From an uncultured Gammaproteobacteria bacterium (GTDB lineage Bacteria > Pseudomonadota > Gammaproteobacteria > CAWCPV01): DNA of 64,000 nucleotides. Location of the stretch: NCBI GenBank assembly GCA_963797555.1, contig CAWCPV010000003.1:1-64000 (forward strand), read 5' to 3'. The notes below the pieces were generated by a model. It ran no database searches. It was not told the origin of the DNA and saw only the letters and a list, made by a program, of their open reading frames with translations. Both the position numbers and the translations under genes were made by a program. Within the stretch, counting starts at the first letter, position 1. The number at the start of each line of letters is the position of its first letter. Positions 17,070 to 62,539 of the stretch are shown in pieces.

Positions 17070-17117
17070 TTCGTGTTCTGTGTCGTCACGCAGGGCGTGA
17101 CAGGAGTTTCGGACCGG

Positions 17118-32598: not shown

Positions 32599-32600
32599 CA

Positions 32601-32741
32601 GAGCTTGTGAAGAAGTCGTCGCGAGCGGCCCGAGAGCCAGGCGCACGGAGCGCAGCGACGAGACATATCAGGTAGATAGACGAGGAGCGAGCACCGCGCA
32701 ACGAAGCTCACGGGACGCGCAGTAGATTTATTCACGAGCTC
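32601..32741. mobile_element. 141-bp MITE-like insertion with 3-bp TCA target duplication
   Basis: Terminal inverted repeats gagcttgtgaagaa / ttattcacgagctc; TCA at 32598-32600 and 32742-32744. Confidence 0.75.
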
Positions 32742-33083
32742 TCAGCCCTCCGCGATCAGCGCCTGCCCAGGACTGCGCACCTTGTAGGGCACGGTCCCGG
32801 GCGGCGTGCCGTCGGTGAGTCCCGTGACGGTGTCGAGACACACGCGCCTGCCGTCGATGCGTATCAGGTCGGAGTATCCCGACTGCACACGCAGGGTCTT
32901 GCCGCAGGGCTTGATGGTCGGGCCCACGTTGGGACAGCCCTTGATCGGCCGGCCTTCCGGGTCGGTCTCCACCAGCGCGCGGCGGCGCTCCACGGTCACC
33001 AGGTCCTGCGTGGCGACGATGTTCACGATACCCAGCTCGTGGGCACACACCAGCACGGCGTCCTCGGTGAGCCAGCGCATCAT
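32742..33083 (-). CDS. PAAR-like spike-tip protein
   Basis: LVCAH, IKGCP, KPC, IRIDGRRV, GLTDG; immediately after the spike gene. Confidence 0.7.
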   Translation of the reverse strand: MMRWLTEDAVLVCAHELGIVNIVATQDLVTVERRRALVETDPEGRPIKGCPNVGPTIKPCGKTLRVQSGYSDLIRIDGRRVCLDTVTGLTDGTPPGTVPYKVRSPGQALIAEG

Positions 33084-35439: not shown

Positions 35440-36854
35440 GGAATGCCCCTTTGCTCCCTGTCCAGGTGCCGCTCCCTTTCTGCTCGGAGGCGCTCCGCAG
35501 ATAGGACCCGGGCGATAACATGCTCACCGCCGCCGGCAGGCGACGGAAGGCTGGGCCACCGGTCGGGTGATTCGTCGGAGATCGGGGAATCGGCGGTCAC
35601 GGATTCGGGCAGGCTGGGCCAGGCGCCGGCGGAACGGTGCGCCGGCGCGAGCCAGAAGCCTGTCGCCGCGAGGGGCGGCCCGCCCGATATGGGCCCCTCT
35701 GGCACCGGGCAGAGCCTGATGCCGCCCGGACCGGCGGCAATGCTCGGGTATTCGGGCTGAGGCTGACCGGCAAAGGTCCGAGGCGGCGCCGTAGCGGCCT
35801 GCGGACCTTGGGTCGACCCCGCGGGCTGTTCTTCTACGCCTGCGGCCGACGATGTGCTCGGCGCTGCCAAAGGCTCTGTGCGCTCGGGAAGCAACGCATG
35901 CCTGAAGAAATCGAGATCCGGAGCAGGGGCCGTCGCTCGCCGGTTCGGCTCTCTGCGAGGCGGGGCTTGTGGCTCCGGCACTCTCGTCGCCGTGGCCGCG
36001 CCGGGGGACTGCGGCGGCACTGGAGCCGGTCCCGCTCGGCTCTGCGAGACCGGAGCCGTCGCGTTGGGCGACGACCGTCTGCGCGGGGGCTTCCACCAAG
36101 GCCGCTGCGCGCCGGTGGAGGCAGGCCGGCGGGTGACCGTGCCGGGCTGGCGCGCATCCGACGAAGCTACCGGGACGGCGTTTGCTCGGGGCTCGGACCC
36201 GCTCACCGGCGATTCCGGGTTCATTGCCGGCCCCGGCTGGGCGAGATTCGGGTTCGTACGTCGCCGATCGGGCGCAGGCACCTGCCGCTGCTCTTCGTCT
36301 GGCCGCTGGGGCAAACGCGGGGCGGACCATTCCGGCCTTACGCCAGCCTGAATCCCGGCGCGACGCACACCGGCGGCCTCCGCGGTCGCGGCCGCCCCGC
36401 GCATCCTGCCCGCAGCGCCCTCGGCCTCATCCCGGGGCACCTGCGGTCGGGAATGGTCTGTTCCGCAGTGGGCCGCATGCGAGTGCGGGGAGACCCCAAT
36501 GGGCGACGGAGGCGCGGAAACGGCCGCGGGGCCGCCCGTGTCGGTTGCGGGGAAAGTCTCCGCGCTCGGCTCCGGGGAAGGCAGCATGGCACCGGACTGG
36601 GCACCGCGCAGAAGCTGCGGTGCATGCCGGCGCACCAATCGCAGCCAGTGTTCCGGGGCACCCACGGTCGGCCGGACGGCCATCCCGTCCACCTGCCGGG
36701 ACTCACCCGGAGCCGAGGCGGTCGCCGGCATCTCGTCCGGCTCTCTTCGCTCTACCCCCGGCTGCGGTTCCCGAGCAGCCTCCAACCTGTCCGCCAAGGC
36801 GCCCAGCCACTGCGCCAAGCGGCGACGCAACGCCCGTTGCATCGTCCCGGTCAC
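35427..36854 (-). CDS. Pro/Ala-rich low-complexity CIS-associated protein
   Basis: Fills gap between tube and initiator with coupled ends; ends WPSLP..RHLDREQRG. Confidence 0.45.
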   Translation of the reverse strand: MTGTMQRALRRRLAQWLGALADRLEAAREPQPGVERREPDEMPATASAPGESRQVDGMAVRPTVGAPEHWLRLVRRHAPQLLRGAQSGAMLPSPEPSAETFPATDTGGPAAVSAPPSPIGVSPHSHAAHCGTDHSRPQVPRDEAEGAAGRMRGAAATAEAAGVRRAGIQAGVRPEWSAPRLPQRPDEEQRQVPAPDRRRTNPNLAQPGPAMNPESPVSGSEPRANAVPVASSDARQPGTVTRRPASTGAQRPWWKPPRRRSSPNATAPVSQSRAGPAPVPPQSPGAATATRVPEPQAPPRREPNRRATAPAPDLDFFRHALLPERTEPLAAPSTSSAAGVEEQPAGSTQGPQAATAPPRTFAGQPQPEYPSIAAGPGGIRLCPVPEGPISGGPPLAATGFWLAPAHRSAGAWPSLPESVTADSPISDESPDRWPSLPSPAGGGEHVIARVLSAERLRAERERHLDREQRGIPWSA

Positions 36855-36856
36855 AC

Positions 36857-37288
36857 TCAGTCGGCGCGCTTCAGTTCATCCGCGACCAGTGTCATGGTTT
36901 CGATCGCGGCGGCGGGGGCCATGGCTTCGAGCTTCGCCGCTCGCCAGTCCGTCAGCCAAGCGCGGAACAGGTTCCAGCGCGTGACCTCCTGCACCGCGTC
37001 GGTGCCCAGGAGGATGATGGAGACGTCCCTGCGCGTAACCTTTCCCTCCAGTCCTTCTTTGAACCAATCCCAGAGCGAGTTGGTCTTGCTGAGGCCATAA
37101 CGCAGCGTCACCTCGCCGACCTTGGCCCAACCGGGAAGCCTGCGCACCCAGGGCGCATCGCCGCCCGCCCGGTACTCGATGGCCTCCACCTTGACCCCCA
37201 GGCCGCTCACCTCGGTGAAATACGCGGCCGTCGCACCCTGGATGTCGAGTTTGAAGCTGTACGCGCGATAGATATCGTCGTCGGGCAT
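36857..37288 (-). CDS. Tail tube protein (T4 gp19-like)
   Basis: FTEVSGL, IEYRAGG, VTLRYG, LWDW, RRDVSI, RWNL..AW, AIET. Confidence 0.92.
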   Translation of the reverse strand: MPDDDIYRAYSFKLDIQGATAAYFTEVSGLGVKVEAIEYRAGGDAPWVRRLPGWAKVGEVTLRYGLSKTNSLWDWFKEGLEGKVTRRDVSIILLGTDAVQEVTRWNLFRAWLTDWRAAKLEAMAPAAAIETMTLVADELKRAD

Positions 37289-37319
37289 GGACTGGCTCCT
37301 CCGTCCGTGATCTGTTTAA

Positions 37320-37414
37320 CCGGTCATGGTGACTTTCGCCGCGTCGCATCATGAAAGCGCGCGCCATGACCGGCTCCCTCACCCCTAGCCCTCTCCCGCG
37401 AGCGGCGAGGGGGA
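37320..37414. repeat. Intergenic palindromes (REP-like) between sheath and tube
   Basis: ccggtcatgg...ccatgaccgg stem, then ccctcacccctagccctctccc..gaggggg. Confidence 0.45.
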
Positions 37415-37450
37415 ATTTGGTGCGCCTTCGGGGCACCTTCCCGTCAAGCA

Positions 37451-38674
37451 CTATGCGGCGGTCTGCACTTCCGAGCCGCCGGCCCACTGTCCGATGCGGA
37501 AGACGATGAATTCGGCGGGCTTCACCGGAGCGATGCCGATCTCGATCACCAGTCGCCCCGCATCCACCACCTCCGGCGGGTTGGTCTCGGCGTCGCATTT
37601 CACGAAAAATGCCTCGGCCGGGGTCGCGCCCAGCAGCGCGCCGTCGCGCCACAGCAAGGTCAGGAATGCGGTGACATCGCGGATCACCGACTGCCATAGC
37701 GTGAAATCGTTGGGCTCGAACACCGTCCAGCGAGTGCCGCCGGCGATGGATTCCTCGATCATGTTGAACGTGCGCCGCACGTTGATGTAGCGCCACTCGC
37801 TTGCCTCCTCCGCCACGGTGCGCGCGCCCCAGACGCGGATCCCTGCATCGGGGAAGAAACGGATGCAGTTCACCCCGGCGCTGTTCAATTCGCCCTGCTC
37901 TGCGCGCGTCACCCGGTACGTCAGCCCCACCGCCCCCCGCACCGTTTCGTTGGCCGGCGCCTTGTGCACGCCGCGGGTGGCATCCGTGCGCGCATAGATC
38001 CCGGCCATGTGGCCGGAAGGAGGCATCCTCTCCACGCCGGCCCCGTTCATGGGGTCTCGGCCCACGATCCAGGGAAAGTAGAAGGCGCCATAGCCGCCAT
38101 CGGAGTTGCGAGGCCGCATCCCGCGCCCCGCACCCGCCCCACGTGCCGCCTTCTTGCCCTCGCCCTCGTCGCCAGCGGGCGGTGGCCCCGCAGTGGCCAC
38201 TTGCTTGAGCAAGTCGACGTTGTCCACCTCGAGCGGCGCATCCATTATCGCGACCCGGTCTCCGAGTCGCTCGCAGTGGGTAAGCAGCGCGTCGTAGGAG
38301 ACGGCGTCGGTATAACCCGGCGCAGCGACAATCGCCACCTCGTCGATGGCGTCCAGGGCCCACAGCCCGGTGCGGGTGCGGGCATCTCCGCCGATAGGGT
38401 TGTTCTGCCCGACGTTCACCACGTAACAGCGCGCCCCGCCGTTCATGAAGAACCCGAACACCGCCCGCGCCAGGTCAGTCCCGGGGCTGTCGGCGGGTGC
38501 GAACTCCTTCAGGAACTGGGACCAACTGTTGCAGGCGAAAGGCTCGTTCGGATGGGCGTCCGGCTTCGGCGCGACGCCGACGAAAGCGGCGGTGCTGGTA
38601 CCGACCGGCGCGATCGGCCGGGTGCCCATGGAGACCTCCTCCACATAGACGCCGGGGGTGAGATAGTTCGGCAT
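37451..38674 (-). CDS. Contractile tail sheath protein
   Basis: YLTPGVYVEE, FFMNGG, PPSGHMAGIYARTD..RGVHKAPAN, WGART, WRYINVRR, VFEPN, KPAEF. Confidence 0.95.
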   Translation of the reverse strand: MPNYLTPGVYVEEVSMGTRPIAPVGTSTAAFVGVAPKPDAHPNEPFACNSWSQFLKEFAPADSPGTDLARAVFGFFMNGGARCYVVNVGQNNPIGGDARTRTGLWALDAIDEVAIVAAPGYTDAVSYDALLTHCERLGDRVAIMDAPLEVDNVDLLKQVATAGPPPAGDEGEGKKAARGAGAGRGMRPRNSDGGYGAFYFPWIVGRDPMNGAGVERMPPSGHMAGIYARTDATRGVHKAPANETVRGAVGLTYRVTRAEQGELNSAGVNCIRFFPDAGIRVWGARTVAEEASEWRYINVRRTFNMIEESIAGGTRWTVFEPNDFTLWQSVIRDVTAFLTLLWRDGALLGATPAEAFFVKCDAETNPPEVVDAGRLVIEIGIAPVKPAEFIVFRIGQWAGGSEVQTAA

Positions 38675-38675
38675 G

Positions 38676-39362
38676 TCAGACCTCCATTGCCTCGAAGTGA
38701 ATGACCAGCGGTTTCCGATCTCCGGCCACGTGTTCCACGGTGACCGTCTGCTCGTAGCCCTTGGCGCGTATCTGCAGCCGTTTCTGGGGCGGCTCGGCGG
38801 GAACCGCGGCGAAGCGGAAAACCCCCCTGGAGTCCGTGTGCGTCGTGAGCCGCGGCGACCCAAGCTCCACATGGGCGTCGCAGACCGGCAGATTCCCCGG
38901 TCCGAGCAGCACTCCCACGAGCGAAGTGAGCGGGGAGTGATGCACCTCGGCGGGCTTTCGCACCCGCCCGACTTTAGGCTCCGCTCGCGGCAGCCGCAAC
39001 GGCATGCGCAGCATGAACGCGGGGCGCGGAACGATGCCCAAAGCGCTCCAGAAAACCGCTGCGGGCGGATCGAGATCCACCTTGAATTCCGGGGATTCCA
39101 TCGCAGCGAACACCAGTTGCCCCAGCATTCGGTGGGCCTCTTGGGGAGACTCCGCCCGCGCCGTGACCAGATAGCGTAGACCGAGCTGCAGTGGGGGCGT
39201 GCGTGCCGCAGATACGCCCGGCGCGTCGGGGAGCAGATCCAGCAGGTAGAGGTAGATAGCCGGCGCCGCATCGGAGTCGTTGGGCGGCGTGAACCGGACG
39301 TCAACGTCCGGCACGATGGCGCCCGCCCAGTCTTTGAGGCGCTGGTCGAGATCCTCGATCAC
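38676..39362 (-). CDS. Pvc16/Afp16-like cap protein with C-terminal carboxypeptidase-regulatory-like domain
   Basis: IEDLDQRLKDW, IYLYLL, LRYLVTA, LGQL, FWSALG; first gene of the operon. Confidence 0.65.
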   Translation of the reverse strand: MIEDLDQRLKDWAGAIVPDVDVRFTPPNDSDAAPAIYLYLLDLLPDAPGVSAARTPPLQLGLRYLVTARAESPQEAHRMLGQLVFAAMESPEFKVDLDPPAAVFWSALGIVPRPAFMLRMPLRLPRAEPKVGRVRKPAEVHHSPLTSLVGVLLGPGNLPVCDAHVELGSPRLTTHTDSRGVFRFAAVPAEPPQKRLQIRAKGYEQTVTVEHVAGDRKPLVIHFEAMEV

Positions 39363-39904
39363 GGCGCTTCCTCCCTCTCTGACGACCGGGACAGACACTG
39401 CCCCGAAAGCTGTCAGCATCTGCCTAGGACGGCGTAACGCGACAAACTCTTCTGTGCTTCCGGCGCTCCTCCGATGACCGCCAGCGCGTTTATCTGCCTC
39501 GCGTTGGGAGCCTACGTTACTCTGGCGCTTTTCCGATTGCAACGGCTCGGTGACACCGACGCCCGGGAGATATGGCCGTCCGCAAAGAACGCTGCATCCC
39601 TCGCAGTTCCGTTGCCGGACCGACAGGCGCCCATGTTCGCCATCGGGGCCCCTGCACGGAGGTCGAGGCCGCTGTGACCGCGCGGGCGCCGCCCCAATCT
39701 CGAGAACGGACCGCAGCGGTCTTCTCGCGCATGTTGGGAATCGTGTTCTATCTTTAAGGGTGGCCGGCATTCCCCGATAGACGGGTAGGTCGGGTTAGGC
39801 CCCCGCAAGGGGCGAGCCCCGGGCGTCGGCGGTGCCAATCCGCGGCACCCTGACCCACATCGGGACCCTTTGCCACCTTTTCATCGACAGGGAGGAGAGA
39901 ACGA

Positions 39905-41824
39905 ATGGCCAGCATCGTCACAATCACGCCCACAGCCGAGAGTGTGGCGTGCACTCCTGGTGGCTCCGCAGAGCACAGCTTCAGCGTCACCAACACGACC
40001 GGCGCGCCCATCGGGGTCGGTGCGAGAATCGTCACCGCCGACCCCAGTCGGGAAGCGTGGTTCACTATCCAGGGAGCTGCCGAACGCCAGCTTGCCCCCA
40101 ACGAGACCGACCAGGTGACGGTCTCGATCAAGCCGCCAGCAGGCGCGGCACCAGGCACTTACAAAGTCAAGCTACAGGTTTTCTCGTTGGAGCGCGGGCG
40201 CGCGGGCGAGGACTTCACCGACGGGCCGACCGTCGCGGTCGTGGTCGGCCAGTTGCCTCCTCCGCCACCGCCGCCGCCCGATGGCCGGTCCCGCTGGTGG
40301 ATAATGGCGGTCGTGGGCGTGGTGGCACTCTTGGTGGTCGTAGGGCTGGTCACCTGGCTGCTCTGGCCCCCCCGTACGCCCGAGGTGCCGGACCTCGCGG
40401 GGCACACGTTGAAGGAGGCGCAGTCGGAGCTGGAGCACGTCGGACTCACGGTCGGCAAAACCAGCGCGAAGCTTACCGGAAAAACTGCGGAAGGCCAGGT
40501 GATCGACCAGACGCCCGAGCCCGGCAAGCCCTTGAAGAAGGGCGATACGGTGGACCTCGTGCTGGAGGCGGCGTCGGTCGAGGTGCCGGACGTGGTGGGC
40601 AAGAAGGTAGTGGAGGCCCAAGAGGCGCTGAAAAGTGCAGGTCTCGCGGTGGGCCCGATCGCGGAGCAGCGTACCGGCGGGGCCGCGGGCGGCACGGTGC
40701 TGGGGCAAGAGCCTTCGAAGGGGCAGCGCATTTCACCCCAGTCGGCGGTCGCACTGACGGTGGAGGCCGCATCGATCCCCGTGCCGCGCGTCATGGGGCA
40801 AACCCTGGCCGAGGCGACGCGGACCCTGAGAGATCGCGGCCTGGTGGTGGGCGAGGTAACACAGCGTCGGACAGGCGGAACCCCGAGCGTGGTGCTGAAC
40901 CAGAGCCCGGACGAGACTCGGTCCGTCCCGCCCGGCACGGCCGTCGCCCTCACGGTCGAGCAGCAGACCGTCGCCGTCCCCAAGGTCGAGAACCTCGACC
41001 TGCAGAACGCCATGCGCGCGCTGGTCAGCCAGGGCTTGAAGCTCGGCGCGGTCAGCGAGCGCCGCGGTGGCGCTGCCCCGGGGGTCGTGCTGAGCCAGAG
41101 CCCGACCGAGGGGCAGCAGGTGGCTCCGGGCACCGCAGTCAACCTCGTTATCGAGCAGCAGAAGGTCACCGTGCCCCAGTTGCAGGGCCTCGCCCTGCAG
41201 GCTGCAACCGGGCGGATTTCCGCCGAGGGCCTGAAGGTGGGGACGGTGACGAAGGCGCGGGAGGGCAAGGCAGCAGGTACGGTCATTCGACAGAGCCCCG
41301 GCGCGGGAGCCACGGTGATTCCCGGGACCGCGGTGGCACTGGTCATTCAGGACCAGCCTCTGCCCGCGTGTCGTTGGACCCGTTCCGTCTCCGAGGAGTC
41401 GCCCAGCTCGGAGAGCTGTCCGAGCGGTTTCGCGCTGAAAGGCATCAAGTGTAGCGGCAGGTACTGCGACAACAAGGCGCTTTATTGTTGCCCCTATCTC
41501 ACGGAGGGCGACAGGCGGAGCCGCCTCTCGTGGTCGGGCTGGATATCCGAGGAGAGGCCCAACAACACCGCCACCACGCGCTCCGGCTTCGTCGCCGGAC
41601 TGCAGTGCAAGGGTGCCTACTGTGACAACGTCAGGCTCCAGTACCTGAGCACCCCGGACCTCCGCAACACCGGACACTGCAGCAACCAGCCTTACGTCTC
41701 CGAAGAAGGATCGGGAACATCCATTTGCGGAGGGTACGGCACGTTCGTGGCCGGGATGAGCTGCAAAGGAAGCCACTGCGACAATGTATCGTTAGAATGT
41801 TGCGGGTCCGACCTGGGCCGGTAG
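39905..41824 (+). CDS. Ig-like + TM + 5 PASTA repeats + Cys-rich triple-repeat domain
   Basis: N-terminus paralogous to 27845-29008; five VP..G..A..L...GL..G repeats; three (V/I)SEE...CxGx(Y/H)CDN repeats. Confidence 0.85.
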   Translation: MASIVTITPTAESVACTPGGSAEHSFSVTNTTGAPIGVGARIVTADPSREAWFTIQGAAERQLAPNETDQVTVSIKPPAGAAPGTYKVKLQVFSLERGRAGEDFTDGPTVAVVVGQLPPPPPPPPDGRSRWWIMAVVGVVALLVVVGLVTWLLWPPRTPEVPDLAGHTLKEAQSELEHVGLTVGKTSAKLTGKTAEGQVIDQTPEPGKPLKKGDTVDLVLEAASVEVPDVVGKKVVEAQEALKSAGLAVGPIAEQRTGGAAGGTVLGQEPSKGQRISPQSAVALTVEAASIPVPRVMGQTLAEATRTLRDRGLVVGEVTQRRTGGTPSVVLNQSPDETRSVPPGTAVALTVEQQTVAVPKVENLDLQNAMRALVSQGLKLGAVSERRGGAAPGVVLSQSPTEGQQVAPGTAVNLVIEQQKVTVPQLQGLALQAATGRISAEGLKVGTVTKAREGKAAGTVIRQSPGAGATVIPGTAVALVIQDQPLPACRWTRSVSEESPSSESCPSGFALKGIKCSGRYCDNKALYCCPYLTEGDRRSRLSWSGWISEERPNNTATTRSGFVAGLQCKGAYCDNVRLQYLSTPDLRNTGHCSNQPYVSEEGSGTSICGGYGTFVAGMSCKGSHCDNVSLECCGSDLGR

Positions 41825-42234: not shown

Positions 42235-42358
42235 CGGTATTTCTTCACAAGACCTCATGCTCGGCAGGGGCACCACACGGCATAAAAATGACTGTTTTCA
42301 AGGCAACTCTGAGTTCCCTCCGCCAAGTGTGATTGGGGTGTCCGAGCAAGACATCCTG

Positions 42359-44347
42359 ATGGGCGGTGCCCGGCGCATCGAGATCGGCCGCGACGCCGTC
42401 GGCAACACCATCATCACCGGCGACGGCAACGTCGTCGGTGATCGAAGCGGTGCGGCGCCTTCCGGACCCGCAGGCCGCGCCACCCGGCTCGGCCCCAACC
42501 CTTACAAGGGGCTGGCCGCGTTCGACGAGGACGACGGCGAACGTTTCTTCGGGCGTGAGGCCCTGACCGGGAAGCTCTGGGAGGCGTTGCTTGCGCTGCA
42601 CGCGCCGCTGGACGCATCGCCTCCCTTGCGGCTGCTCGCCGTGGTCGGACCTTCGGGCTGCGGCAAATCCTCCGTGGTGCGCGCAGGGCTGCTGCCTGAG
42701 CTGGCGCGCCGGCCGCTCCCTGGCCTGGAGCGCTCGCGAGTCGCGGTGCTCACCCCCGGGGCGCACCCGCTGGAGGCGCTCGCCACCGTGCTGGCGCGTA
42801 TCGCGACGGACGATCCGGCCCCCATCGCCAAGGCGCGAGAATTCGCAGAAGAACTGAAGAGACCCCCGCACGACGGTCTGCGGCGCATCGGTGACGCCTT
42901 CCCGGGCAGCGCCAGCGCCCCCCTCGTCGTGCTGGTCGATCAGTTCGAGGAGGCTTATGCCCTCTGCCAGGACCCCACCGAGCGCGATGCCTTCATCGCC
43001 AATCTGATGGAGGCGGCGGCCGACCGCGGCGCCCGGGTCTCCGTGGTGCTGACGCTGCGCAGCGACTTCCTCGGTGCCACCGTGCGCCATCCGGCCCTCA
43101 ACGCGCCATCGCCGACCAGGGCATCCTGGTGCCGGCCATGGGCGAGGACGAGCTCCGCCGGGCCATTGCCGAGCCGGCGCGGCGGGCCGGCCATCCGCTG
43201 GAAGAGGCCACCGTCGATCGGCTGATCGGCGAGACCCTGGGCCGCGAGGGGGCGCTGCCGCTGCTCGAGTTCACCCTCACCCGCATTTGGGAGGGGCTTG
43301 CCGAGGGCAAGGCACCGGCCGAGACGCTGAGGGCGTTGGGCGGGGTGGGCGGTGCGCTCGCCGGGGAGGCCGAGCGGCTGTTCGAGCGGCTGACCGAATC
43401 CCAGCAGCAGATTGCGCGGCGTGCCTTCCTCGCCTTGGTGCGGCTCGGGGAGGGCACGCGGGACACGCGCCGGCGCGCGGTTCTCCCCGAGATGGTGGCT
43501 GCGGGCGAGCGTCCCGAGCAGGTGCAGGAGGTCCTGCGCGCCTTCGCGCGGGCGGGCGAGCGGCTGGTCACGCTCTCCGACGGAGGGCGGCGAGGTGTGG
43601 GCGGAGGTTACCCACGAGGCCCTCTTCGAGCACTGGACGCGGCTCCAGGGCTGGTTGACGACGGGTCGCGACGACCTGCGCTTTCACCGGCGCCTCGCTG
43701 AGGCGGCCGAGCACTGGGACCGGGCGGGACGCCCCGAGGGCCTGCTCTGGCGCCCGCCCGACCTGGATCTGCTGGATGCTTTCCAGCGCCGCGCTAGAGC
43801 GGACATGACAGCCCTGGAGGTGGACTTCCACCACACCTCGCTGGCTCGGGAACGGGCGCGTCGCCTCGCCAAGCGCGCGACGGTCTCGGGCCTGGTCCTG
43901 CTGCTGATTCTGATGGGGGGCCTCGGGGTGCTCTTGGAGCATCAGCGTAGGCTGGCCGACGAGCAGACGCACGAGGCCGAGACGGCTCGTCACCGCGCCG
44001 AGGAGCAAAGGGGCCTGGCGGAGCAGCAGAGGCTTCAGGCCGACATGGCTCGGCAACAAGCCGAGGAACAAAGAACTCTCGCAACCGCCAGGGAGCTGGC
44101 GGCCAGGGCGAATCTGGCGCTCGCAAGCTTTTCTGAATGGTGTAGTGTCCTGAGCACGCTTCTGTCCGTCGAGTCAGTCCGGCGACAGCCCACCTTCGAG
44201 GGCCAAATGGCTCTGATGGCTGGTCTACGGGTGCTGCGCTGCCCCATCGCCCGCCTTCCGCATGACGCTTGGGTCGAGGCCGTCGCCTTCAGCCCGGACG
44301 GCACGCGCCTCGCCACCGCAAGCAAGGACAGGACCGCGCGGCTCTAC
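42359..44347 (+). pseudogene. nSTAND1-type NTPase-TM-WD40 protein, truncated after first WD40 repeat
   Basis: PYKGLAAF..FFGRE, GPSGCGKSS, VDQFEE, TLRSDF, GALPLL, HEAL..W; single VAFSPDGTRLATASKDRTARL repeat; N-terminal IITGDGN motif. Confidence 0.8.
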
Positions 44348-44434
44348 GATAAATTCGTGGCGCGCCTCCGCGCGCTGCTCGCCGCTCAGGTAGTCATCCG
44401 CGCTGACAGGGGTCCAGTGGGCGTGCGAAGCCAT
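44348..44434 (-). pseudogene. N-terminal fragment of a Uma2-family endonuclease
   Basis: MASHAHWTPVSADDYLSGEQRAEARHEFI, then collides head-on with the WD40 fragment. Confidence 0.55.
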
Positions 44435-44600
44435 GGCTTCCCATCGCTGAGGTCGATGCCGCCCATCATAAGGACCTGAAGCGGGAACCACAAACGCGCC
44501 GCAAGCGCGGGTGCTGGGGAGTCCACGGCGCAGCCGTGTCGGCCGCCATCCCGCCGGGCAACGCTGGGCTCTGCCCACCCGCCGATCAGAACCCAGAAAC

Positions 44601-47441
44601 TCAGAAATCAGAATCCGCCAGGGACACCACCACCCGAAACCCCAGGGCGTAGCCGAAGCTGCCGGGATGATCCCTGCTCCGGTAGGCGCAGCGCGCGACC
44701 CTGCGGTCGCTGCTCCAGGAACCGCCGCGCACCACGCGCGGGCCCTCCGCCTGCGGGTCCTCTCGCCCGTCCTCGGCCGATACGGGTAATCCCGGTAGAG
44801 GCTCGCCGTCCACTCCCAGACGTTGCCGGAGAGGTCGTGGATGCCCTGCGCCGTGGCACCGGAGGGATAGACGCCCACCGGGGTCGTCCGCAGCACGCGC
44901 CCCTCGGCGGTATTGGCCCGCTCCGGACTCCAGCGGCGTCCCCACGGGTAGCGCCCTCCGCGGGGGTAGCGGGCGGCGCGCTCCCAGGCCGCCTCGCTGG
45001 GGAGGGCAACGCCCTGCCCCGGCGCGAGGGGCGGCTGCGCGGCGTCCCCCGCCGCCCGCCACCGGTCCTGGAGCCACAGGCAGTACGCGCGCGCCTCGAA
45101 CCAGGTGACGCCCACCACCGGCTGGCAGGGGTGGTTGAAGGGCGCGTCGTCCCAGTAGGTCGGCCGGTCCGCGGGGCGACTCCCATAGGACTTTTTCATC
45201 TCTCGGGCGAAGTCCTCCTCGTCGAGAGCCAGAGCGTCCTCCCAACGGGCCACGATCTGATGACTCCAGCCCTGCTGCCCAGCCGGCGCGGGTTCTCCTT
45301 CAGCCAGCGCCATAGGTCGATCAGGTCCTCGACCGCCTGGCTCTTCAGCTCGCCGCGCCGCCAGGCCCGAGCCTGGGCGTCGGCCACCAGCGCTCGTCCT
45401 GGTAGCCCCCCGCCTGCCAGAAGCAGGCGTACTCGGCATTGGTGACCGGGTAGCGGCCGATCCAGAAGGCCGGAAGCGGGACCTGGCAAGGGGGGAACTC
45501 GTCGCCAGCCGGCACCTTCGAAAGCCGAAGCCGGAGCAGCTCCCAGAGGCTCGAGCCCACCCGAAAGGCGCCCGCCGGCAGGGGCACGAGGGGCCGCAGC
45601 AGCACCCGCTGCCCGTCCACCGCGAGGGCCTGGAAACGCGGGTCGCCCAGGCTGCCCAGGGCTTCGCCTGCGGCGATGCGGTGGCGCAGGTGGACCTTGC
45701 GGTTCCCCATCGCCGCCAGCAGGTCGTTCTGGACGCCCTGGACCTGGCCCGGGTCCGCCGCCGCGCCGACCTCCGACAAGCAGCGGGCGGCGAGCACCGG
45801 GTTCGCCCGGCGCACCGCCTCGACGAAGGCGCCAGCATCTTCCGCGAGGCCCGCGGCCAGCACCGTCGGCTCCTCCCACCCCGTGGTCGGCGGCCCGGGC
45901 AGCGGCTCGTCCGGCCCCAGCGGGCCCGGATCGGGCATCTCCCGGACAAGCCTGCGCTGGCGCCAGCGGGGGGCGAGGTCCTCGCCTTTGGCGAAGCGCG
46001 AGAGCAGGGCGCGCGCCGAGAAGTACTCCTGGAGCTGGTGGTGGTAGAAACGAAGCTGCTCCTCGGCGCGCGCGTCCCGCTCGCCCTCGCGCCGCGGCTC
46101 CACCTCGGTGTCCAGCAGGGTGGCCGCGAGCCCCAGGCGCTCGACGACCGCCGGGGCAACGTCCACCGGGCCGTCGGCGGTCTCCACCGTCCGGGGGATG
46201 CGCTGCCGCGCCTCTTTCCGCGGCAGCCGCACACCCGCCCCGAAGGGCTGCAGGGTCTCGGCCAGACCGGAGAGCGCCATGGCGAGGGCTTCTTCTCCGG
46301 GCCAGTCGGGGTGGTTGCGGTCGTGCTCCCGGGCGAGCAGCAACCTGACGAAGCCCTTGAACAGGGCGGCGCGGCTCCGCGGCCAGTCCCCGCCTTCCTT
46401 GACCAGGGCCGCCAGCATGGCGAGATACCAGGGATTGCGCACGAGGTCGAGCAGCGGGCTTCCCTCCAGCCTGCCCCAGGCCTCCCCGGCGAGCTCCGAG
46501 GTCAGGTAGCGGGCGAGAAAGGTCTGCACCCGAGGGTCGTCCAGGCGCTCGATCTCTACCTGAGGCAGCCCGAGGGGCTCGCCGTAGTCCCGGCTGCGGC
46601 AGGTGACCACCACCTGGTTGCCCGGCCGCTCGGCGAGCTTTGCGATGAAGCGGCGCCACTCCCCCACCCGCACGCGATAGTCCCGCTCGTCTTCGAAGGG
46701 CATCTCGTTCAGGGCGTCGCAGAGCAGCAGGACACCGCCGCCGTCCACCCGCGCCTGCAGGTCGGCGGTCCCGACCCACTTCCACTGCGCCTCCAGCAGC
46801 TCGTGGGGGGAGCGGTAGCCGCGGTAGTCGGCGAGCGGCAGGAACACCGGGAACGGCCCCTGCCCTTCCTCCAGCCGGCGGCGCGCCGCCTCCAGCGCCA
46901 GACGGTACAGGGTGGTGGTCTTGCCGGCCCCCGGCTCGCCCAGAAGCGCCACGGCGTGGTGGCGGCCGAGCGCCTCGGCCACGTTCTCCAGGCGCACGCG
47001 CTTCACCTGGCGCTGGGGCCCTTCCCCGAGCACCTGCAGCTCCGTGTACTCGGGGGCCAGATCCTCGCTGGTCAGCATCCCGGCCAGCGGCACGAACTGG
47101 GTCGCCCAGCGCCCGTAGCGGGGGCTCACCAGCATCGCGGCCAGGTAGGCCCGTTCGTCCCCCTGTCGGGCGGCGGCCGGCCAGAGGTCGGACGCAGCCT
47201 CCCTGGAAAGGGTCACCTGGGGAGCGCCGGGTGCGCTGACCATCAGGAGCCCCCGCGCGGGGTCCGCCTGGAGGGTCGCCTGGCGATCGGCGAGCATCTC
47301 CCGCAGGACGGAGAGGACTTCGTCGAGCTGCTCCGGGCTGAAGGGGCCAAGACGGAGGTTCAGGTCGCGGCCGATGACCGTGCCGGCCTGCACCGGCCCC
47401 GCGTAGATGGCCCCGCCTCCCGTGTCGATTCAATCCGGCAT
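44601..47441 (-). CDS. DGR target 1: NACHT NTPase + FGE-sulfatase (C-type-lectin fold) domain; frameshifted, in-frame TGA at codon 4
   Basis: GEPGAGKTT, LLCDALNEM, VVTCR, FYHHQLQEY; [39 protein letters not shown]; N-terminal IDTGGGAIYAGPV. Confidence 0.88.
44622..44738 (-). repeat. DGR variable repeat VR1
   Basis: 117-nt match to TR with 14 substitutions, all opposite TR adenines. Confidence 0.95.
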
Positions 47442-47467
47442 GTCTTGGCTCAGGGGTGCACAAGATC

Positions 47468-47663
47468 CCCGGCGCCGTGCCGCTCGGGCGGCAGGACGCC
47501 GGGCGCTGCGCTATTCGGCCGGCCGCGGGGCTGCCGCGGGCGCGACCCGGACCGGGCTGGGCTGGCTCTTCTCCCTGGCACCGTCCCGCATCGCTGGATG
47601 ACGGGATCTGCCGGCCGTGTCAAGCGGGCTGCGCCCGCCATGCCTCCCAGGGAAAACGGCTAT
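47468..47663 (-). ncRNA. Structured spacer downstream of TR (probable part of the DGR RNA)
   Basis: Hairpins at 47468-47503 and 47584-47606 immediately 3' of TR. Confidence 0.55.
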
Positions 47664-47780
47664 GGACACCACCACCCGAAACCCCAGGTTGTTGTTGAAG
47701 TTGTCGGGATGATTCCTGTTCCGGTAGGCGCAGCGCGCGTTCCTGCGGTTGTTGTTCCAGGAACCGCCGCGCACCACGCG
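47664..47780 (-). ncRNA. DGR template repeat (TR)
   Basis: Reads [39 protein letters not shown]; 9 AAC + 1 AAT codons, 25 adenines; directly after avd. Confidence 0.95.
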
Positions 47781-47807
47781 CGGTGGCAGCCCGGCCCGAC
47801 ATCCAGT

Positions 47808-48155
47808 CTAGCGCAATTCTCTCCCCGGTCGACTCTTGCGCCAACCGCCGAGCAGCCTGCCGATTTCCTCCACCATGCGCGAGACGTGCTCGTACTGCCC
47901 GTCACTGAGAAGGTCCAGGTCGCGGCACAGCCGCAGGTGGAGCCGCAGCTTGACCAGGGTTACGTCGGCCTTCTGAAGCATGGGCTGAGCGTCGCTGGCG
48001 CAAGCCGCCTCAATCAGCTCCTCGTGGAAACGCAGTGCCGTTTCCTGTAGGGCCTGCGCCAGGACGAAGCGCTGCTGTCGGGGAAACCGCAGGGTGGCCG
48101 GTATGAGCCAGCGCAGGAGGTCGTAGGTGCGGGAGAAGATGGGTGATTCCTTCAT
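47808..48155 (-). CDS. avd: DGR accessory variability determinant
   Basis: IFSRTYDLL.W...FPRQQRF.L, LRL..DL, EIGRLLGGW; between RT and TR. Confidence 0.92.
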   Translation of the reverse strand: MKESPIFSRTYDLLRWLIPATLRFPRQQRFVLAQALQETALRFHEELIEAACASDAQPMLQKADVTLVKLRLHLRLCRDLDLLSDGQYEHVSRMVEEIGRLLGGWRKSRPGRELR

Positions 48156-48226
48156 CGGCGCCAGCGTTCAGCGACGTAGGGCAGCTCGACCTGCCGCATC
48201 ACCGCCCGGCGGCCATCAGCGGACGG

Positions 48227-56838: not shown

Positions 56839-57531
56839 GGCATCCAGGCACTCGACGGCGTGCTCCAGCCACGCGCGGGCCGTTTCCAGGTATCCGAGGC
56901 CGGCCCAGGCGTCGCCCTGGAGCAGTGCGAAGGCTCCCTCGTTCCGGAGGCCGAGCCTCCAGGGCGCGGCCACGCTGCCCAGGGCGCCGAGGCCGTCCAG
57001 GTAGCGACCTCGGCCGTAGAGCCACTCCGTGAGCGGGAGCAGCAGGTCGCAGGCGCGGTCGGTCTCGCCCACCTCGCCCAGGTGGTGAGCGGCCTCCCAG
57101 GCGTCGTTCCAATCGGCCGAGGTGGCGGCGCGGCGCTCCAGGAAATCTCCCGCGCGGCGGTGGCCTTCGGCCACCAGCGCGTCAAGGTCGGGCGTGAGTC
57201 CGCGGGCCAGGCTCGCCACGCTCGGCTCCACCTCGAAGCGCCGCCGCACCCGGCCGTCCGGGGCCGGCTCGGCCACCTCGGTGAGCAGGGACGCGTCCCG
57301 CAGGCGGCGAATGGACGCCTCCGGAGCGTCGTCGCCCAGGGCCCCGAACAGGTCCCAGTCGGCCGGCAGGCGCAGCACCGTGGCGCGCACCAGCAACCGT
57401 CGGGCGGGCTGGTCCAGCACCCGCTCCCACAGCGCCTCGAACAGCAGGTCCTCGGAGAGCTGCTGGCCGAGCGGTGGTAGCAGGGGCTTGACAAGATGCG
57501 TCCACTCCTTGTTCGCCTCGTCCTCGTCGGC

Positions 57532-58160
57532 GGCCGGCGCGTCCACGTCGTGCAGGGTCTGGGCGGGCTCGGCAAGACCGCGTTGTGCGTCGAGGCCCTC
57601 AAAGTCTACCGCCGGCAGGGCCGCGAGGTCCTCCACCTCTGGTGCGCCGAGGTGGAAGAGTCCGCGGATGCGGTGGAGGGGCTGGTCCGCCAGCTCGAGC
57701 AGGCCGCCGCGCCGCTGGCCGGCGAGGTGTGGGACGCCCTGCTCGCCGGCCTCGACCAGGTGGCCGCCGCCCATCCCGACCTGCAGCGTCCGGCCGGGCG
57801 CCTCGGGGTGCTCCTCGCCGCCCTCCTGGCCCGCGAGGGGCAGGGGCCGCTGGTGCTCTACCTGGACAACCTCGAGTCCCTGCTGACTGCGCCCGAGGCG
57901 GAGGACGCCTTCGGCGACTGGCGCGACCCCGAGTGCGCCGCCCTGTGGCGGGTGCTGCGAGAACGCGCCGCGGCCTCCGCGGGACGCCTCGCGCTGCTCG
58001 CTTCCTGCCGTTACCGCCACCGAGACTTCGCCGACGTGCTGCTGCCTTTGCGGCGGCTGCCGCCCGACGCCCTGTGGCGGCTCATGGGGTGGTTTCCCGG
58101 GCTGCGCCGCCTCTCCCGCTGGAGCCTCAAGCGGCTGGTGGAGGGGCTCGCGGGCCACCC
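57532..58160 (+). other. Inverted internal segment of the CHAT-STAND-TPR gene
   Basis: Plus strand reads RRVHVVQGLGGLGKT..LVLYLDNLESL..LAGHP, the missing middle of the minus-strand gene. Confidence 0.85.
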
Positions 58161-59973
58161 CTGGCGCAGGTCCCGGCGCAAGGCGTGCAGCTCCCGGCGG
58201 CGTCCCACGAAGCCCTGGCGCAGGATGCGGGTGCGCGACCCCGGCGCCACCTCCTCCTCGAGGCGCTCGGGGGGAGCCTCCACGGTCTCGGTGTACCGCT
58301 TGGGGATAGGGAGCCCGAGGGGATAGTCGGGGCCGCGGTGGTAGAAGACGAGCTGGGCCCAGGCAAAGGGGGTTAGGCCACCGGAGGCTCCGGAGGCGTC
58401 GCGCAACACCTGGCGGGCGTCGGGCACGAGCGGCCGGGCCATCGCCTGCCGGGCGGCGCGCACCGCGTCGCGGGTACGCCGGCCGCGGGCGATCTCGCCG
58501 TAAAAGGCCGCCTCCGCCCAGGTGGACTGGGCGTCGTAAACCGGGCCGAAGTAGGCCACCACCTGAGCCACGCCGTCGCGGTGGAGCAGCGCGGCGGCGG
58601 AGGCGATGCCGGCCTGCTCGCCGGCGCCCAGGCTGGGGGCATCGCCCCCGTGACAGCAGGCGAGGTAGAAGAAACGCGGGAACCGCGCCGGTGCGGCGCG
58701 GCGCATATCCTTCAGCAACCGGTCGACCGGCACGCCGTCCTGGCCGCCGAAGGCGTCCTCGAACACCAGCTCGCCCGGCCCGCCGTGGCCGGAGAAGTGC
58801 ACGCCGAGCGGCGGCGGGTTGGCACGCAGGCCCTCGACCAGGTCGTCCAGCTCCCCCATCTCGTTGACCTGCACCCCGACATGATCGTGCAGCGCCCGGG
58901 TGATGTAGTAGCTCTCGGCCTCGTAGTCGAGCCCGCTGCCCTCGGGCGCCGAAACGTTGATGAGCAGGCGCACCGGCTCCGCGGGCGGGGCGAGGACGGG
59001 TGTCCCTGGGGCGGGGACCGAGCGCGCCACGTCCAGGCGTCCTTCCTGCACGGCGTAACGACCTTCGAGCCGCAGCAGTTCCCAGGGGAGGGCCAGGATG
59101 AAGTCGTCCGCGCTCTCGATTACCAGCAGTGGCGGCGGGCCGTCCCCGTGGGCGGCCGCGGTGAGCGTCTCGGCCTCTTCGGGGGCGAGCACTCGCCCCA
59201 GCGCCTCGCCCAGCGCGAGAGCATGGGCCTGGACCGCCTGGCGCTCGCCGTCGTCCTCGATGGCGCGCCGGCTGAGCCGCCAGAAGCCCTCCAGGGCGGG
59301 GCCGAAGCCCGGTGTCGCGGCCCAGGGCACCGGTACCGTGCGGGAGGCGCCTCCGGCCTCCGACCGGCTCGCCGCGATCTCCCAAGCGGAGCGCGCTTCG
59401 TCGGCATAGCCGATGGAAAGGGTCAGGGTGGGCAAGGGCACCGCGCCCGGCACGTCCTGGGCCTTGAGGACCCCACCCTCCAGTTGGGCAATCAGCTCCG
59501 CCGTCAGCTCGGTGATGCCCGGAAACACGTAGACCCGGTTGTCGTCCCCGGTGATGATGACGTTGCCGTGCGCATCGTGCCCGATGTGCACCTGCCTCTC
59601 CCCGTTCATGCGCCCCCTCCTGCTCCCTGCTGCGCGCTTCGCGCGGCCGGAATTAGGGTCGGCTTTCCCGCCGACCACGGCACCCAGGTTGGAAGTTTAA
59701 CCTGCCCCGGGCGGACGGTAGGCTTCCCGTCTTGGGTGGCGTTACCGAATCCAGCGGCCCTCCCGGAGGGGCGGCTAGGCTCCCGCCGTCGTCCACTCGC
59801 GAGTGGCCAGCAGACCGTCCTCGTGCAATACCAAGTTACCCCTGCGGTACCGGACCGCCGTCGGCCTTCCAGCCTCCTCCGGGGCTGCTGACCATGCCCG
59901 GCTTCCAAGAATGAACAGCGCGTGTCACAGACCCAAGAGGCGGAACCGATGTGGTCCTTCCAAGCCCGACACG

Positions 59974-61181
59974 TCATGGCCACCAGCGGCCCACATCCCC
60001 AACGGCGTGCGCGACCTCTACCAGTGCCTCTGTGCCGCCCATGCCGGCAATAACCGGTGCGCTTGGAACCAAGACTTGCAGCATTTCATAACGCGATCCG
60101 AGCATGGCAGCCGCCACCAGGCCACTCCAGCGGAAGTGCAGCATTTGGCGCGGCAGCTCCACAAACCCGGCAAAGCAGGACAGGGCCTTGGCTCGCAAAT
60201 TCTGATCCCCGATGCCCCGCGCCACCCCTAAGGCTTGCCCGAGCAGCGGCTCGGGCAGGTGCGGCAACAGATCCGCCAGGACCCCGGCCCGCTCGGACTC
60301 ACTCCCGATGCGCCGCATCGCCTCCAGGGTTTCGGCCAGAACCGAGGCGCGCAGCGACTCTGACAGGTACGGGCGCCAGTCGGCCGAGGGCCTCGGCACG
60401 CTCATACCCATCCCCGATAATGCCGCGCGCGCTCGCTGAAGAGCGGCTCCAGGCGCGCAACCTCGCGCGGCACGTCGACGTTGAGGGCGACCGGGACCGG
60501 GCGCTGGGTGGCGACGACGTAGACGCCCTGGGGCAGGCCGCGCGGCAGCGCGAGTACGTTCTCCCCGCTTTCGGCGGGCAGCTCGTCGAGCGCGTCCACC
60601 GCCAGGACGATGGGCTCGTCCGCGCGCTTGGCGTCGCGTTTCGCCGCAGCCTGCTGGAGCGGCCGGCTCAGGTAATTCGGCTGGCCGGCGTGCTGCGGAA
60701 GCGCCGCCACCTCGGACTCGAGCAGCCACGCCCGCAGGAGCTGGGCGGCGAGGCTGCGGCGGGCGGTGGCCGGGTCGTGGCCGCCGGGGAGCTCCGGGAA
60801 GTGGTGCACGTAGGCGCGCTCGCGCACCAGGTGCGCCAGGTAGGCGGTCTTTCCCAGCCCGGCGGGCGCCTCGATGACGAAGTAGCCGCGGTCATGGGTG
60901 CGCAGAAAGGCATCCAGGCGCTCCGTGAGCCAGCCCCGCCCGGCGAAGCGCTCCAGGTGCACGCGCTCGAACACCTGGGCCGGCGAAAGATAAGCGTCGA
61001 GCAAGGGCTGGTCCGGGCCGACGAACACCTGCTCCGCGCTGATCAGCAAACTGTTGACGACGTTGCCGCCGACCTGGATGCGCCGGTCGTGGATGATGCT
61101 GTGGTCGCCCTGGACGATGTTGCCGAGGTTGTCCCCGTGCACGTCGGCCCGTCGGTCAGGGCTTTGCGGTTTGCGGAACAT
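59974..61181 (-). pseudogene. STAND/NACHT-like NTPase with N-terminal amyloid-like motif; apparent large internal deletion near 60410
   Basis: FAGRGWL, APAGLGKT, LAVDALDE, LPQGVYVVATQRP joined abruptly to helical-repeat C-terminus ending VGRWWP. Confidence 0.7.
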
Positions 61182-61191: not shown

Positions 61192-62539
61192 CTATTCCTT
61201 GGCCTGGTCCCGGCGCCCGTCGCGGGACACGCGCACGCCGTCGCCGCTGATCAGCGTGCTGCCAGTGACGTCGCCCCCGACCTGGATGCGACGGTCGTGG
61301 ATGATGCTGTGATCGTCCTGGACGTTGTCGCCCTCCACGTGGACGTGGCGGCTCTGTCGGGGCTCGCGACGGCGCCGGAGCCAACTCCTTCCGAGCCAGC
61401 CCAGACCGCCCAGCAGGAGGGCGGTGCCGATACCCGAGAACAGTGCCTCCCAGTGGGCGCCGACCCAGCGGCGCAGCGATGCCCATGCCCCCTGCCCGTC
61501 AGGAGTGGATGCGCTCGGCCCGGTCGGGTTCTCTCGCACTGCGATCGCGGTGGACGAGGCTCCCGCGCCGATGGTCTGGACTGGCGTACCGATCAATACC
61601 TCCCGCTGCGGACCGCTTGTCGCGCAGCGCTTGCCCGCTTCCGCCGCCGATGTCTCCTTCAGCTTGAACACGAAATCTCCGCGGGACAGCTCGTAATCCT
61701 TGATGGTGCCGAACTGCGGCGTCTGAGCTTCATGCTCAGACACGGTATTGCGGAGGTAGAGCCCGAGTCTCCATACCGGTGACGTAACCGTCGCAGTCCA
61801 GGTCCCCCTTTCCGAAGCGCAGCGCGTCCACGAAGGCCGGCGCGAAGACGCTGCGCGCCGGCACGGTCTCATTGGCGCTGCCGGCGGTGATGAATTCCCG
61901 CACCGGCTCGGCCGTGATACGCGCGATGTGCGGGGGCTGCTTCGGCAGCTCACGCGCCTGGAAGACCATCCCGGAGAAACAGCTATCGAACAGGAACAGG
62001 TCGTGCTTGGCCTCGATCTCCCGCGCCCAGAGCAGCACCTGCTCCATACTCACGGCCTTTGCCTTGAAGCCGTTGGGGTCCGCGTCGGGGCTGGGCGCGT
62101 CCACGGGGACGATATAGCCCATCTCGATCCCGTCCTCGCGCTTCAGCGTGTAGCCATGACCGGCGAAGAAGAACACCAGCCGGTTGTCGTACACCCGCCC
62201 GTAGCGGTCGATGAAGTCCACGAAGGCCGCGCGGAGCTGCTGCGCGCTGGCGTCGAGGAGCTTGACGACCTGGAAGCCCTGCCCCTTCAGGGTCGCTTCG
62301 ACCTGGTCCAGCTCACCCGGCACGCTCTCCAGGTCCGGCCAGCCCCCCCTGTAGTCGCTCTCGCCGACGAGCAGCGCGTGACTCTCCCGGTAGAGGCCGA
62401 CCTGTTGCCCGCTCGGGTCCGTCACCACGACCACGCCGCGCTGGAGGTCATCGGCGCCCGGCAGGGCACCGAACCAGAGGACGGCGAGCACGGCGAGGAT
62501 GCTCCCTCCCTTGCGAGCGCGTGCTCTCCGGTTATTCAT
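61192..62539 (-). CDS. Signal peptide-caspase(C14)-TM-amyloid-like-motif protein (one frameshift near 61770)
   Basis: HALLVG, FFAGHG, FDSCFSG, REFITAG, DGYVTG, RGDFVF; TM ALFSGIGTALLLGGLGWLG then RSWLRRRR; tail DHSIIHDRRIQVGGDVTGSTLISGDG. Confidence 0.82.

Follow-up and report, generated by a model that had tools for sequence, protein, structure and literature searches.

A BASS6-type motif on STAND NTPases and caspases in a conflict-system island of a probable gammaproteobacterium

The window analysed here is a stretch of 64,000 nucleotides (C3:1-64000, on contig C3) from a genome of 5.35 Mb assembled as 20 contigs with a GC content of 0.645. From ~20 kb onward it carries an island of conflict-system genes, which include five STAND (signal transduction ATPases with numerous domains) proteins of the NLR-like (nucleotide-binding, leucine-rich repeat receptor-like) kind and two caspases, termed caspase-1 and caspase-2. 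A short glycine-rich motif recurs at the N-termini of STAND proteins and on the tails of both caspases. On its sequence pattern the motif is a member of the published BASS6 family of bacterial amyloid signalling sequences (BASS), and not a new class; the island is a new context for a known motif family. We consider it fairly probable that the motif acts as a BASS6-type homotypic adaptor, coupling activated STAND oligomers to their effectors.

The copies of the motif are as follows.
42365-42448 (+): BASS6-type motif at the head of the nSTAND1-WD40 gene (profile match E 5e-14).
52716-52799 (-): BASS6-type motif in the predicted cytoplasmic tail module of caspase-1 (profile match E 5e-14; 96% identical to the protein P0014).
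59520-59603 (-): BASS6-type motif, residues 3-30 of the CHAT-STAND-TPR gene (profile match E 1e-17).
61216-61299 (-): BASS6-type motif at the C-terminus of caspase-2 (profile match E 1e-13).
61002-61100 (-): degenerate fifth copy near the head of STAND5, the STAND gene 3′ of caspase-2, and putative partner of the caspase-2 tail (profile A1, E 0.003).

Translation confirms the peptides on which the original prediction for this DNA was based. The sequence RIEIGRDAVGNTIITGDGNVV is encoded at 42374-42437(+), at the N-terminus of the nSTAND1 protein, and RQVHIGHDAHGNVIITGDDNRVY at 59528-59597(-), at that of the CHAT-STAND-TPR protein. The caspase-1 copy is GVAVGGSVSGSTIVTGDGNRV and that on the caspase-2 tail, where a related sequence had been noted, is IQVGGDVTGSTLISGDG. 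The motif is therefore found on three STAND heads and two caspase tails. All five STAND proteins had been thought to begin with such a motif; this holds for three of them (in degenerate form for STAND5), while the heads of the other two, NLR-A and NLR-B, carry a motif of a DTGGG class instead. NLR-A and NLR-B are two NACHT-FGE genes located around a diversity-generating retroelement (DGR).

Within the genome the motif is restricted to the island. The strict pattern G.{4}G..[ILV][ILV][TS]G[DN].N, scanned in the six-frame translation of all 20 contigs, has three matches, all within the island. Profile A1 (28 columns, built from the four window copies other than that of STAND5) returns those four at E 1e-13 to 1e-17 and the STAND5 copy at E 0.003. 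All five significant matches lie at C3:42-62 kb and the next best in the genome has E 3.3, so that the occurrence of the motif in the window is far above chance. Profile A1 gave no convincing match in 40 class-level relatives (best E 0.012; the set includes an unpublished genome, G039, whose weak match was left unused), the motif profile had no real match in 400 genomes sampled from the phylum, and no BASS6 copy was found at 74 genome loci with related caspases (best E 0.064). A single match in the phylum sample (G097) was rejected as an antisense artefact after translation.

One alternative is that the motif is a glycine-rich beta-helix or linker sequence of a generic type, which plays no specific part and is equally frequent in unrelated proteins. 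Pfam and NCBIfam models searched at E up to 10 against seven motif-bearing segments of the window include no family that covers the motif, and the weak Pfam echoes of beta-solenoid families (FapA, E 0.09; YadA_head, E 0.018) are what can be said for such a generic origin. The absence of the motif from the sampled relatives and from the rest of the genome argues that it is not generic linker sequence, and its carriers elsewhere are conflict-system proteins with the motif at their termini (below). The generic explanation is close to refuted, and the motif is specific, as the original prediction had it.

A 34-column profile of the motif searched against 1.84 billion representative proteins finds 163 carriers at E <= 1e-3. 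Among the 150 of these that were listed, P0003-P0007 are the window's own or near-identical products and 145 are foreign. Of the foreign matches listed, 53 carry the motif N-terminally, 47 at the very C-terminus and 24 internally, while 21 are short fragments; the consensus of the foreign matches is GDRSVAIGGDASGSTIITGDGNVV. Pfam annotation of 80 of the 150 carriers finds on the sensor side nSTAND1 (seven), CHAT (five) and NACHT/AAA_16-type domains only (five), and on the effector side TIR_2 (six), Peptidase_C14 (three), Trypsin_2 (two) and an alpha/beta-hydrolase (one), together with TCAD2 (five). The remaining 46 have no family; many of these are helical, 130-165 aa long, and end in the motif, which forms their last 25 residues. 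Most carriers have the motif either at the N-terminus of an nSTAND1, CHAT or NACHT NTPase or at the C-terminus of a small helical, TIR or caspase protein. The location is thus the same in the window and elsewhere, that is the N-terminus of an NLR-like STAND protein and the C-terminus of an effector.

BASS6 is one of ten families defined from gene pairs of Bell effectors and NLRs in the preprint of Dyrka et al. 2020 (10.1101/2020.01.06.895854), and is proposed to link NLR-like sensors of bacteria with effectors of cell death. The Bell-side training sequences of the ten families are given in the supplement of Dyrka et al. 2021 (PMC8086366), in which class C09 holds sequences near-identical to the foreign-match string; the accompanying README equates C09 with BASS6. 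The 'third motif class' that had been put forward is therefore BASS6, and the comparison with the BASS families that had been proposed leads to this match. Across the family the pairwise identity of the motif has a mean of 57% and a 90th percentile of 71%. In AlphaFold monomer models the motif has a pLDDT (predicted local distance difference test) below 55 and adjoins confident helical bundles, with short strands drawn over the motif at low confidence. Such values are in line with disorder of this segment in the monomer.

The clearest pairing in the island is that of caspase-2 with STAND5.
61195-62539 (-): caspase-2, with a signal-like N-terminus, a Peptidase_C14-like domain, a moderately hydrophobic segment (61390-61446) and the motif tail; there is a frame shift near 61740.
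60402-61181 (-): STAND5 P-loop NTPase (the P-loop is read from GLGKT in translation alone; P0003 is its own or a near-identical product).
The start codon of STAND5 lies 10 nt past the stop codon of caspase-2 on the same strand, so that an effector gene and an NLR-like gene sharing the motif are adjacent and collinear. The two copies of the motif are 83% identical in DNA over 88 nt (repeat family D4) and 76% identical in residues, above the 90th percentile of the family. Of the pairs in the 2020 preprint 91% are collinear and 57% lie within 10 bp; the 10-nt gap, the collinearity and the motif identity match this geometry of published amyloid-signalling pairs. By gene arrangement and motif likeness, caspase-2/STAND5 is a clear private and canonical pair. 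The architecture of caspase-2 is present in a single frame in P0070 (418 aa; Peptidase_C14, 1.7e-15). When the tail of P0070 was searched against 5.8e9 clusters P0070 itself alone was returned, and as the 74 caspase loci also lack the motif, the combination of caspase, transmembrane segment and BASS6 motif is rare at this sensitivity.

Caspase-1 is more complex, and is described by the following features in addition to its motif.
53509-54119 (-): signal-like N-terminus and first part of the Peptidase_C14 domain (Pfam 7.5e-19, profile positions 3-134 of 233), truncated by a duplicated segment.
53328-53508 (no strand assigned): 181-bp copy of the NLR-B start region, in place of the middle of caspase-1 as judged by alignment with caspase-2 (99% identical to 52306-52486; repeat family D3).
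53024-53080 (-): predicted transmembrane helix with basic residues after it (Kyte-Doolittle 19-residue mean 2.81; topology inferred).
52859-52873 (-): DTGGG motif of the tail, in another frame than the BASS6 copy (in frame with BASS6 in P0014).
52470-52715 (-): four-helix-bundle domain ending the tail module (from frame mapping against P0014; at least four more frame switches).

The tail had been described as two motifs in tandem. The tandem order is real, and in P0014, a homologue of the tail from another assembly, DTGGG, BASS6 and ~90 further residues are read in a single frame; in the window the two motifs are in different frames, the BASS6 copy lying 60 nt downstream of DTGGG with a one-base indel between them. 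The tail is not a bare pair of motifs as had been supposed. It is a fused module of ~130 aa, comprising DTGGG, BASS6 and a four-helix bundle. The AlphaFold model of P0014 has a confident four-helix bundle (helices 77-163, block-mean pLDDT 74-93) following the low-confidence motif region. P0014 aligns end to end with the stand-alone proteins P0024, P0095, P0033, P0130, P0143 and P0028, all of which have the order TGGG-type motif, BASS6 and helical domain, and the same module heads an nSTAND1 protein, P0019. Since the tandem motifs and bundle recur in these stand-alone proteins and in P0019, they form a conserved, portable module, not a quirk of caspase-1. TCAD2 (PF19971) matches the helical domain in P0143 (3.8e-11), P0130 (1.9e-5) and P0033 (9.8e-4), with no match in P0014 at E 10. 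Fold searches with the bundle returned generic helical bundles only (Foldseek best E 0.27; VIA best Z 8.2), and no relative of P0014 was found in metagenome contigs.

Caspase-1 lies directly upstream of NLR-B and adjoins it, and the DTGGG motif is common to caspase-1, NLR-A and NLR-B. BASS2, whose entries share a loose S-G-G...G-P-V-x-Q-G-R-D pattern, is a candidate family for the DTGGG class; the DTGGG-type strings searched for have no convincing form in the BASS training sets of PMC8086366. Two further DTGGG-type copies are present on contig C2 of the same genome (G000), at 189887-189901 and 196845-196880, one of which is VVDTGGGAYIGGNVTTGGGDFIGRD; this suggests a second island using the DTGGG motif class.

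Both window caspases and P0070 have the same layout, with a hydrophobic signal-like N-terminus followed by the protease domain, a second hydrophobic segment, arginines and the tail. The Kyte-Doolittle mean of the second hydrophobic segment is 2.81 in caspase-1, 1.52 in caspase-2 and 1.21 in P0070. This layout would place the protease outside the membrane and the tail inside, with good support in caspase-1 and weaker support in caspase-2 and P0070.

The other two carriers are large sensor-type genes.
42257-44479 (+): nSTAND1-WD40 NLR-like gene, frame-shifted as assembled (Pfam nSTAND1 2e-49, and WD40).
55953-59609 (-): CHAT-STAND-TPR gene, split by an inverted segment and frame shifts (CHAT 2.8e-10, TPR_10, AAA_16).
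57532-58157 (+): inverted P-loop NTPase segment of the CHAT-STAND-TPR gene, on the strand opposite to its other parts (from alignment to P0020).
P0077, an nSTAND1-WD40 protein of 1488 aa, aligns with the first of these genes in frames 2, 1 and 2, with switches near 43102 and 43580, and P0007 has a compensated shift directly past the motif. In the second, residues 1-488 of P0020 match 59609-58158 on the minus strand, while residues 488-533 match 57532-57669 on the plus strand; the two breakpoints of the inversion have no inverted repeats. The sensor part of the CHAT-STAND-TPR gene includes five tandem TPR units of 144 nt (48 codons) at 56117-56982, up to 95% identical to each other.

The original prediction made the two-motif tail of caspase-1 a hub on which the various sensors of the island converge. 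No specific support for this was found. The nSTAND1 and CHAT heads each share 48% identity with the caspase-1 copy, which is less than the family mean. The nSTAND1 head is nearest to those of nSTAND1 proteins elsewhere (71-79%; P0140 79%, P0032 74%), and the CHAT head is 72-84% identical to heads of CHAT-STAND homologues. In a metagenome locus search made with a five-row alignment of CHAT-STAND homologues, the homologue is preceded directly upstream in all three loci by a small protein with a BASS6 head and a helical bundle, and not by a caspase. These small partners (L093:462-1142, L094:2613-3065 and L095:699-1229) are ~140 aa long and match no Pfam family; their BASS6 motif is N-terminal, and AlphaFold gives a confident four-helix bundle. 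As the motif precedes the helical domain, they look like an inverted counterpart of the Bell proteins. The data could be explained without a hub, each copy having arrived with its own gene family and acting in private pairs only; the caspase-1 copy would then belong to a fused module, as its end-to-end alignment with stand-alone proteins would suggest, and the nSTAND1 and CHAT heads would be orphans that lack their usual small partners in this island. We give this explanation a little less than an even chance. Against it, the adjacent pairs in the three loci have motif identities of only 57-65%, so that 48% leaves cross-recognition possible. Moreover, the CHAT-STAND gene has no such module next to it, yet a counterpart exists on that strand ~5 kb further downstream, in the form of the caspase-1 tail: hhalign of the caspase-1-type module (A7) with the small partners of CHAT-STAND (A6) gives a probability of 98.9% over 109 columns, with the motif giving much of the score.

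A hub is possible in that the small partner usual for a CHAT-STAND gene is missing here and a homologous module is located on caspase-1, but the private-pair arrangement explains the data equally well. In its fullest form the hub would be a transmembrane relay of several sensors, in which the DGR-diversified NACHT-FGE proteins, the nSTAND1-WD40 protein and the CHAT-STAND-TPR protein converge through tandem amyloid-type motifs on the caspase-1 tail, and clustering on the inside leads to periplasmic proteolysis. The module would then be a portable receiver that may stand alone, head an NTPase (as in P0019) or follow a membrane caspase. This full scheme is improbable on present evidence.

Returning to the adaptor reading that we prefer, the motif would be disordered in the resting protein. 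When a trigger is sensed the STAND NTPase would oligomerise and cluster its N-terminal copies of the motif, which could then fold as a beta-arch or cross-beta structure. This fold would recruit or template the same motif on the effector, so that effector domains are gathered and switched on. If the caspase topology holds, a cytoplasmic sensor could in this way act through clustering of the tails upon an extracytoplasmic protease. Amyloid templating is plausible from the membership of the BASS6 family. The amyloid-signalling link of the original prediction is upheld insofar as this is an adaptor-type motif of a published BASS family, located at STAND N-termini and effector C-termini; no BASS6 amyloid experiment was found in the sources at hand to carry it further.

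The motif might instead be an adaptor of another kind, a short beta-strand module that binds homotypically and stoichiometrically like the effector-associated domains (EADs), with no prion-like templating. The architectural rule of the EADs, with one copy on the core NTPase and one on the effector of the adjacent gene (PMC7159879), is followed exactly, and the BASS literature looked at contains no amyloid data for BASS6. The motif of the CHAT-STAND protein is continuous with a longer conserved region, and the short strands drawn by AlphaFold are of low confidence. However, the Pfam EAD models do not match the window copies even at E 10, and EADs are small and mostly alpha-helical (Kaur et al., PMC7159879). 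The G/N/V/I-rich composition and ~25-residue length fit the published BASS (10.1101/2020.01.06.895854). We regard an adaptor free of amyloid as rather unlikely.

A number of observations weigh against the proposal of a BASS6 adaptor working in this island. The family motif is matched in sequence, by eye and by our own profile rather than by the profile hidden Markov models of the authors. There is no Bell effector; the effectors are Peptidase_C14 caspases and the four-helix-bundle module. The experiments in the 2020 BASS preprint concern BASS1 and BASS3, and none on BASS6 was found there. The CHAT-STAND motif comprises the first 25 residues of a conserved N-terminal region of ~130 aa, and may thus belong to an ordinary domain. 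No partner adjoins the nSTAND1 or the CHAT-STAND head within the window. Lastly, every motif-bearing gene in the window is interrupted as assembled, and the system may be inactive in this organism.

These interruptions are of several kinds, and most parts of the island are broken in the assembly. At least five frame switches fall in a stretch of ~450 nt in the caspase-1 tail, four or more of them within ~350 nt past the indel between DTGGG and BASS6; caspase-1 also contains an in-frame stop, NLR-A has a stop codon immediately ahead of its DTGGG, and the nSTAND1-WD40 gene switches frame at least twice. The 181-bp direct duplication (52306-52486 and 53328-53508) comprises the first 25 codons of NLR-B with the 107 nt that precede them, and its second copy replaces ~75 codons of the caspase-1 domain. 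The inversion at 57532-58157 (~626 bp) could be a rearrangement or a misassembly. Models of rpoB and rpoC found no match in this genome, which is 84.6% complete, and other long genes were therefore used as controls of integrity; gyrA (an 858-aa frame), a UvrA-like gene (1928 aa) and three frames of 848-1021 aa elsewhere in the genome are unbroken.

The island could be a relic in decay, or a stretch that was poorly assembled, with real motifs but no working network in this genome. The frame switches and stops, the duplication and the inverted NTPase segment, set beside the unbroken long frames elsewhere, all favour this. On the other side, residue identity within frames is high (95% to P0014 over 39 aa), and some of the interrupted sites are read through in P0006 and P0007, which come from other assemblies. 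Many indels with few substitutions, together with this read-through, favour local consensus error rather than decay, although the structural lesions (duplication and inversion) could be real. Small shares of two marsh-metagenome contig sets did not resolve the indels, duplication or inversion. Overall a relic or misassembly seems doubtful, though its weight is appreciable, and the adaptor remains our preferred reading.

The remaining features of the island are these.
20776-22854 (+): secreted caspase with DUF4384; no BASS6 motif.
23282-25873 (-): TPR-CHAT gene whose ends look out of frame; no BASS6 motif.
27845-41824 (-): contractile-injection or phage-tail-like cluster (sheath, gp19-type tube, contractile-injection-system tube, VgrG-like hub, baseplate J and P2 gpI), adjoining the NLR island.
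27845-29008 (-) and 39905-41824 (+): NEW3 and PASTA-repeat proteins flanking the tail-like cluster.
44612-44741: DGR variable repeat, FGE/CLec end of NLR-A (86% identical to the template).
47654-47783: DGR template repeat, rich in asparagine codons when translated.
47808-48167: Avd-like gene.
48297-49010: DGR reverse transcriptase, apparently frame-shifted.
49478-49607: DGR variable repeat, FGE/CLec end of NLR-B (71% identical to the template).
54289-55092 (-): multi-pass membrane protein that matches no Pfam family and contains HELYH, an HExxH-like motif; its gene separates caspase-1 from the CHAT-STAND-TPR gene.
55247-55810: small secreted or lipoprotein-like open reading frame adjoining the HELYH membrane protein.

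The GC content steps at ~20 kb, from 0.54-0.60 (1-20000) to 0.63-0.75 (20000-64000). The island is thus compositionally distinct, and with the motif not found in the sampled relatives a horizontal acquisition is possible. The 16S gene shares 85.2% identity with its E. coli counterpart. This makes the host a probable gammaproteobacterium, broadly defined, and probably places it outside the groups in which BASS motifs have mainly been reported.

If the motif works as proposed for BASS, the range of such signalling would widen from the small pore-forming Bell proteins of filamentous actinobacteria and cyanobacteria to membrane-anchored caspases, and in a probable gammaproteobacterium amyloid-type signalling would adjoin sensors diversified by a DGR. 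A candidate role would also follow for the N-terminal extensions, so far uncharacterised, of NLRs that are DGR targets. The caspase-2/STAND5 pair, and the genes for the small BASS6 and four-helix-bundle proteins with their CHAT-STAND neighbours, are compact two-gene systems that can be tested directly. As the motif class is already published and the locus is damaged in the assembly, the value of the island lies in its context and not in a new principle.

The motif has the same ~25-residue pattern as BASS6, G-[DE]-R-x-V-A-I-G-G-x-x-S-G-x-x-I-x-T-G-D-x-N (10.1101/2020.01.06.895854; PMC8086366). The island differs from the published BASS6 systems in that its effectors are membrane-anchored Peptidase_C14 caspases and the four-helix-bundle module in place of Bell domains, its host is probably a gammaproteobacterium and not an actinobacterium or cyanobacterium, and the neighbouring NLRs are DGR targets.

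With HET-S/NWD2 and the other fungal pairs (HRAM, sigma and PP) the shared element is the logic, whereby the gene adjacent to that of an NLR encodes an effector whose C-terminal motif is templated by the motif at the N-terminus of the NLR, although the templating is here a proposal. The preprint 10.1101/2020.01.06.895854 states that BASS1 and BASS6 may form two or three pseudo-repeats on the effector side, and in this respect the two effector-side pseudo-repeats of the fungal pairs, as described there, are alike. The fungal effector is a pore-forming HeLo domain and not a protease, and the likeness drawn here is one of logic.

Bab/Agp (BASS11), which provides antiphage abortive infection in E. 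coli (10.1101/2024.11.07.622273), likewise comprises two genes in which a sensor leads to a cell-death effector through a shared amyloid motif. The motif family, sensor and effector are different, and Bab/Agp has been proven by experiment whereas the island is known from sequence.

The coupling principle is also that of EAD1-11 (Kaur et al. 2020, PMC7159879), with STAND NTPases, caspase, CHAT, TIR and trypsin effectors and DGR-diversified sensors of the FGE type; as in the EAD systems, a small module is shared by the core NTPase and an effector of the same operon. EADs are small, globular and mostly helical domains with Pfam models, and the motif matches none of these; no EAD family of Pfam was found at E up to 10 in the seven window segments or in ten related proteins.

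The gene layout also resembles that of the DGR NACHT/nSTAND1-CLec sensors of Dore et al. 2024 (PMC10907252), which have paired DGR targets, a central STAND module, a C-terminal FGE/CLec domain and adjoining peptidase effectors. Those sensors bear N-terminal extensions with no characterised domains. In the passages of PMC10907252 consulted the extensions are not tied to amyloid-type motifs, the word 'amyloid' occurring in the reference list only, while in the island described here three STAND heads carry the BASS6-type motif beside such DGR targets.

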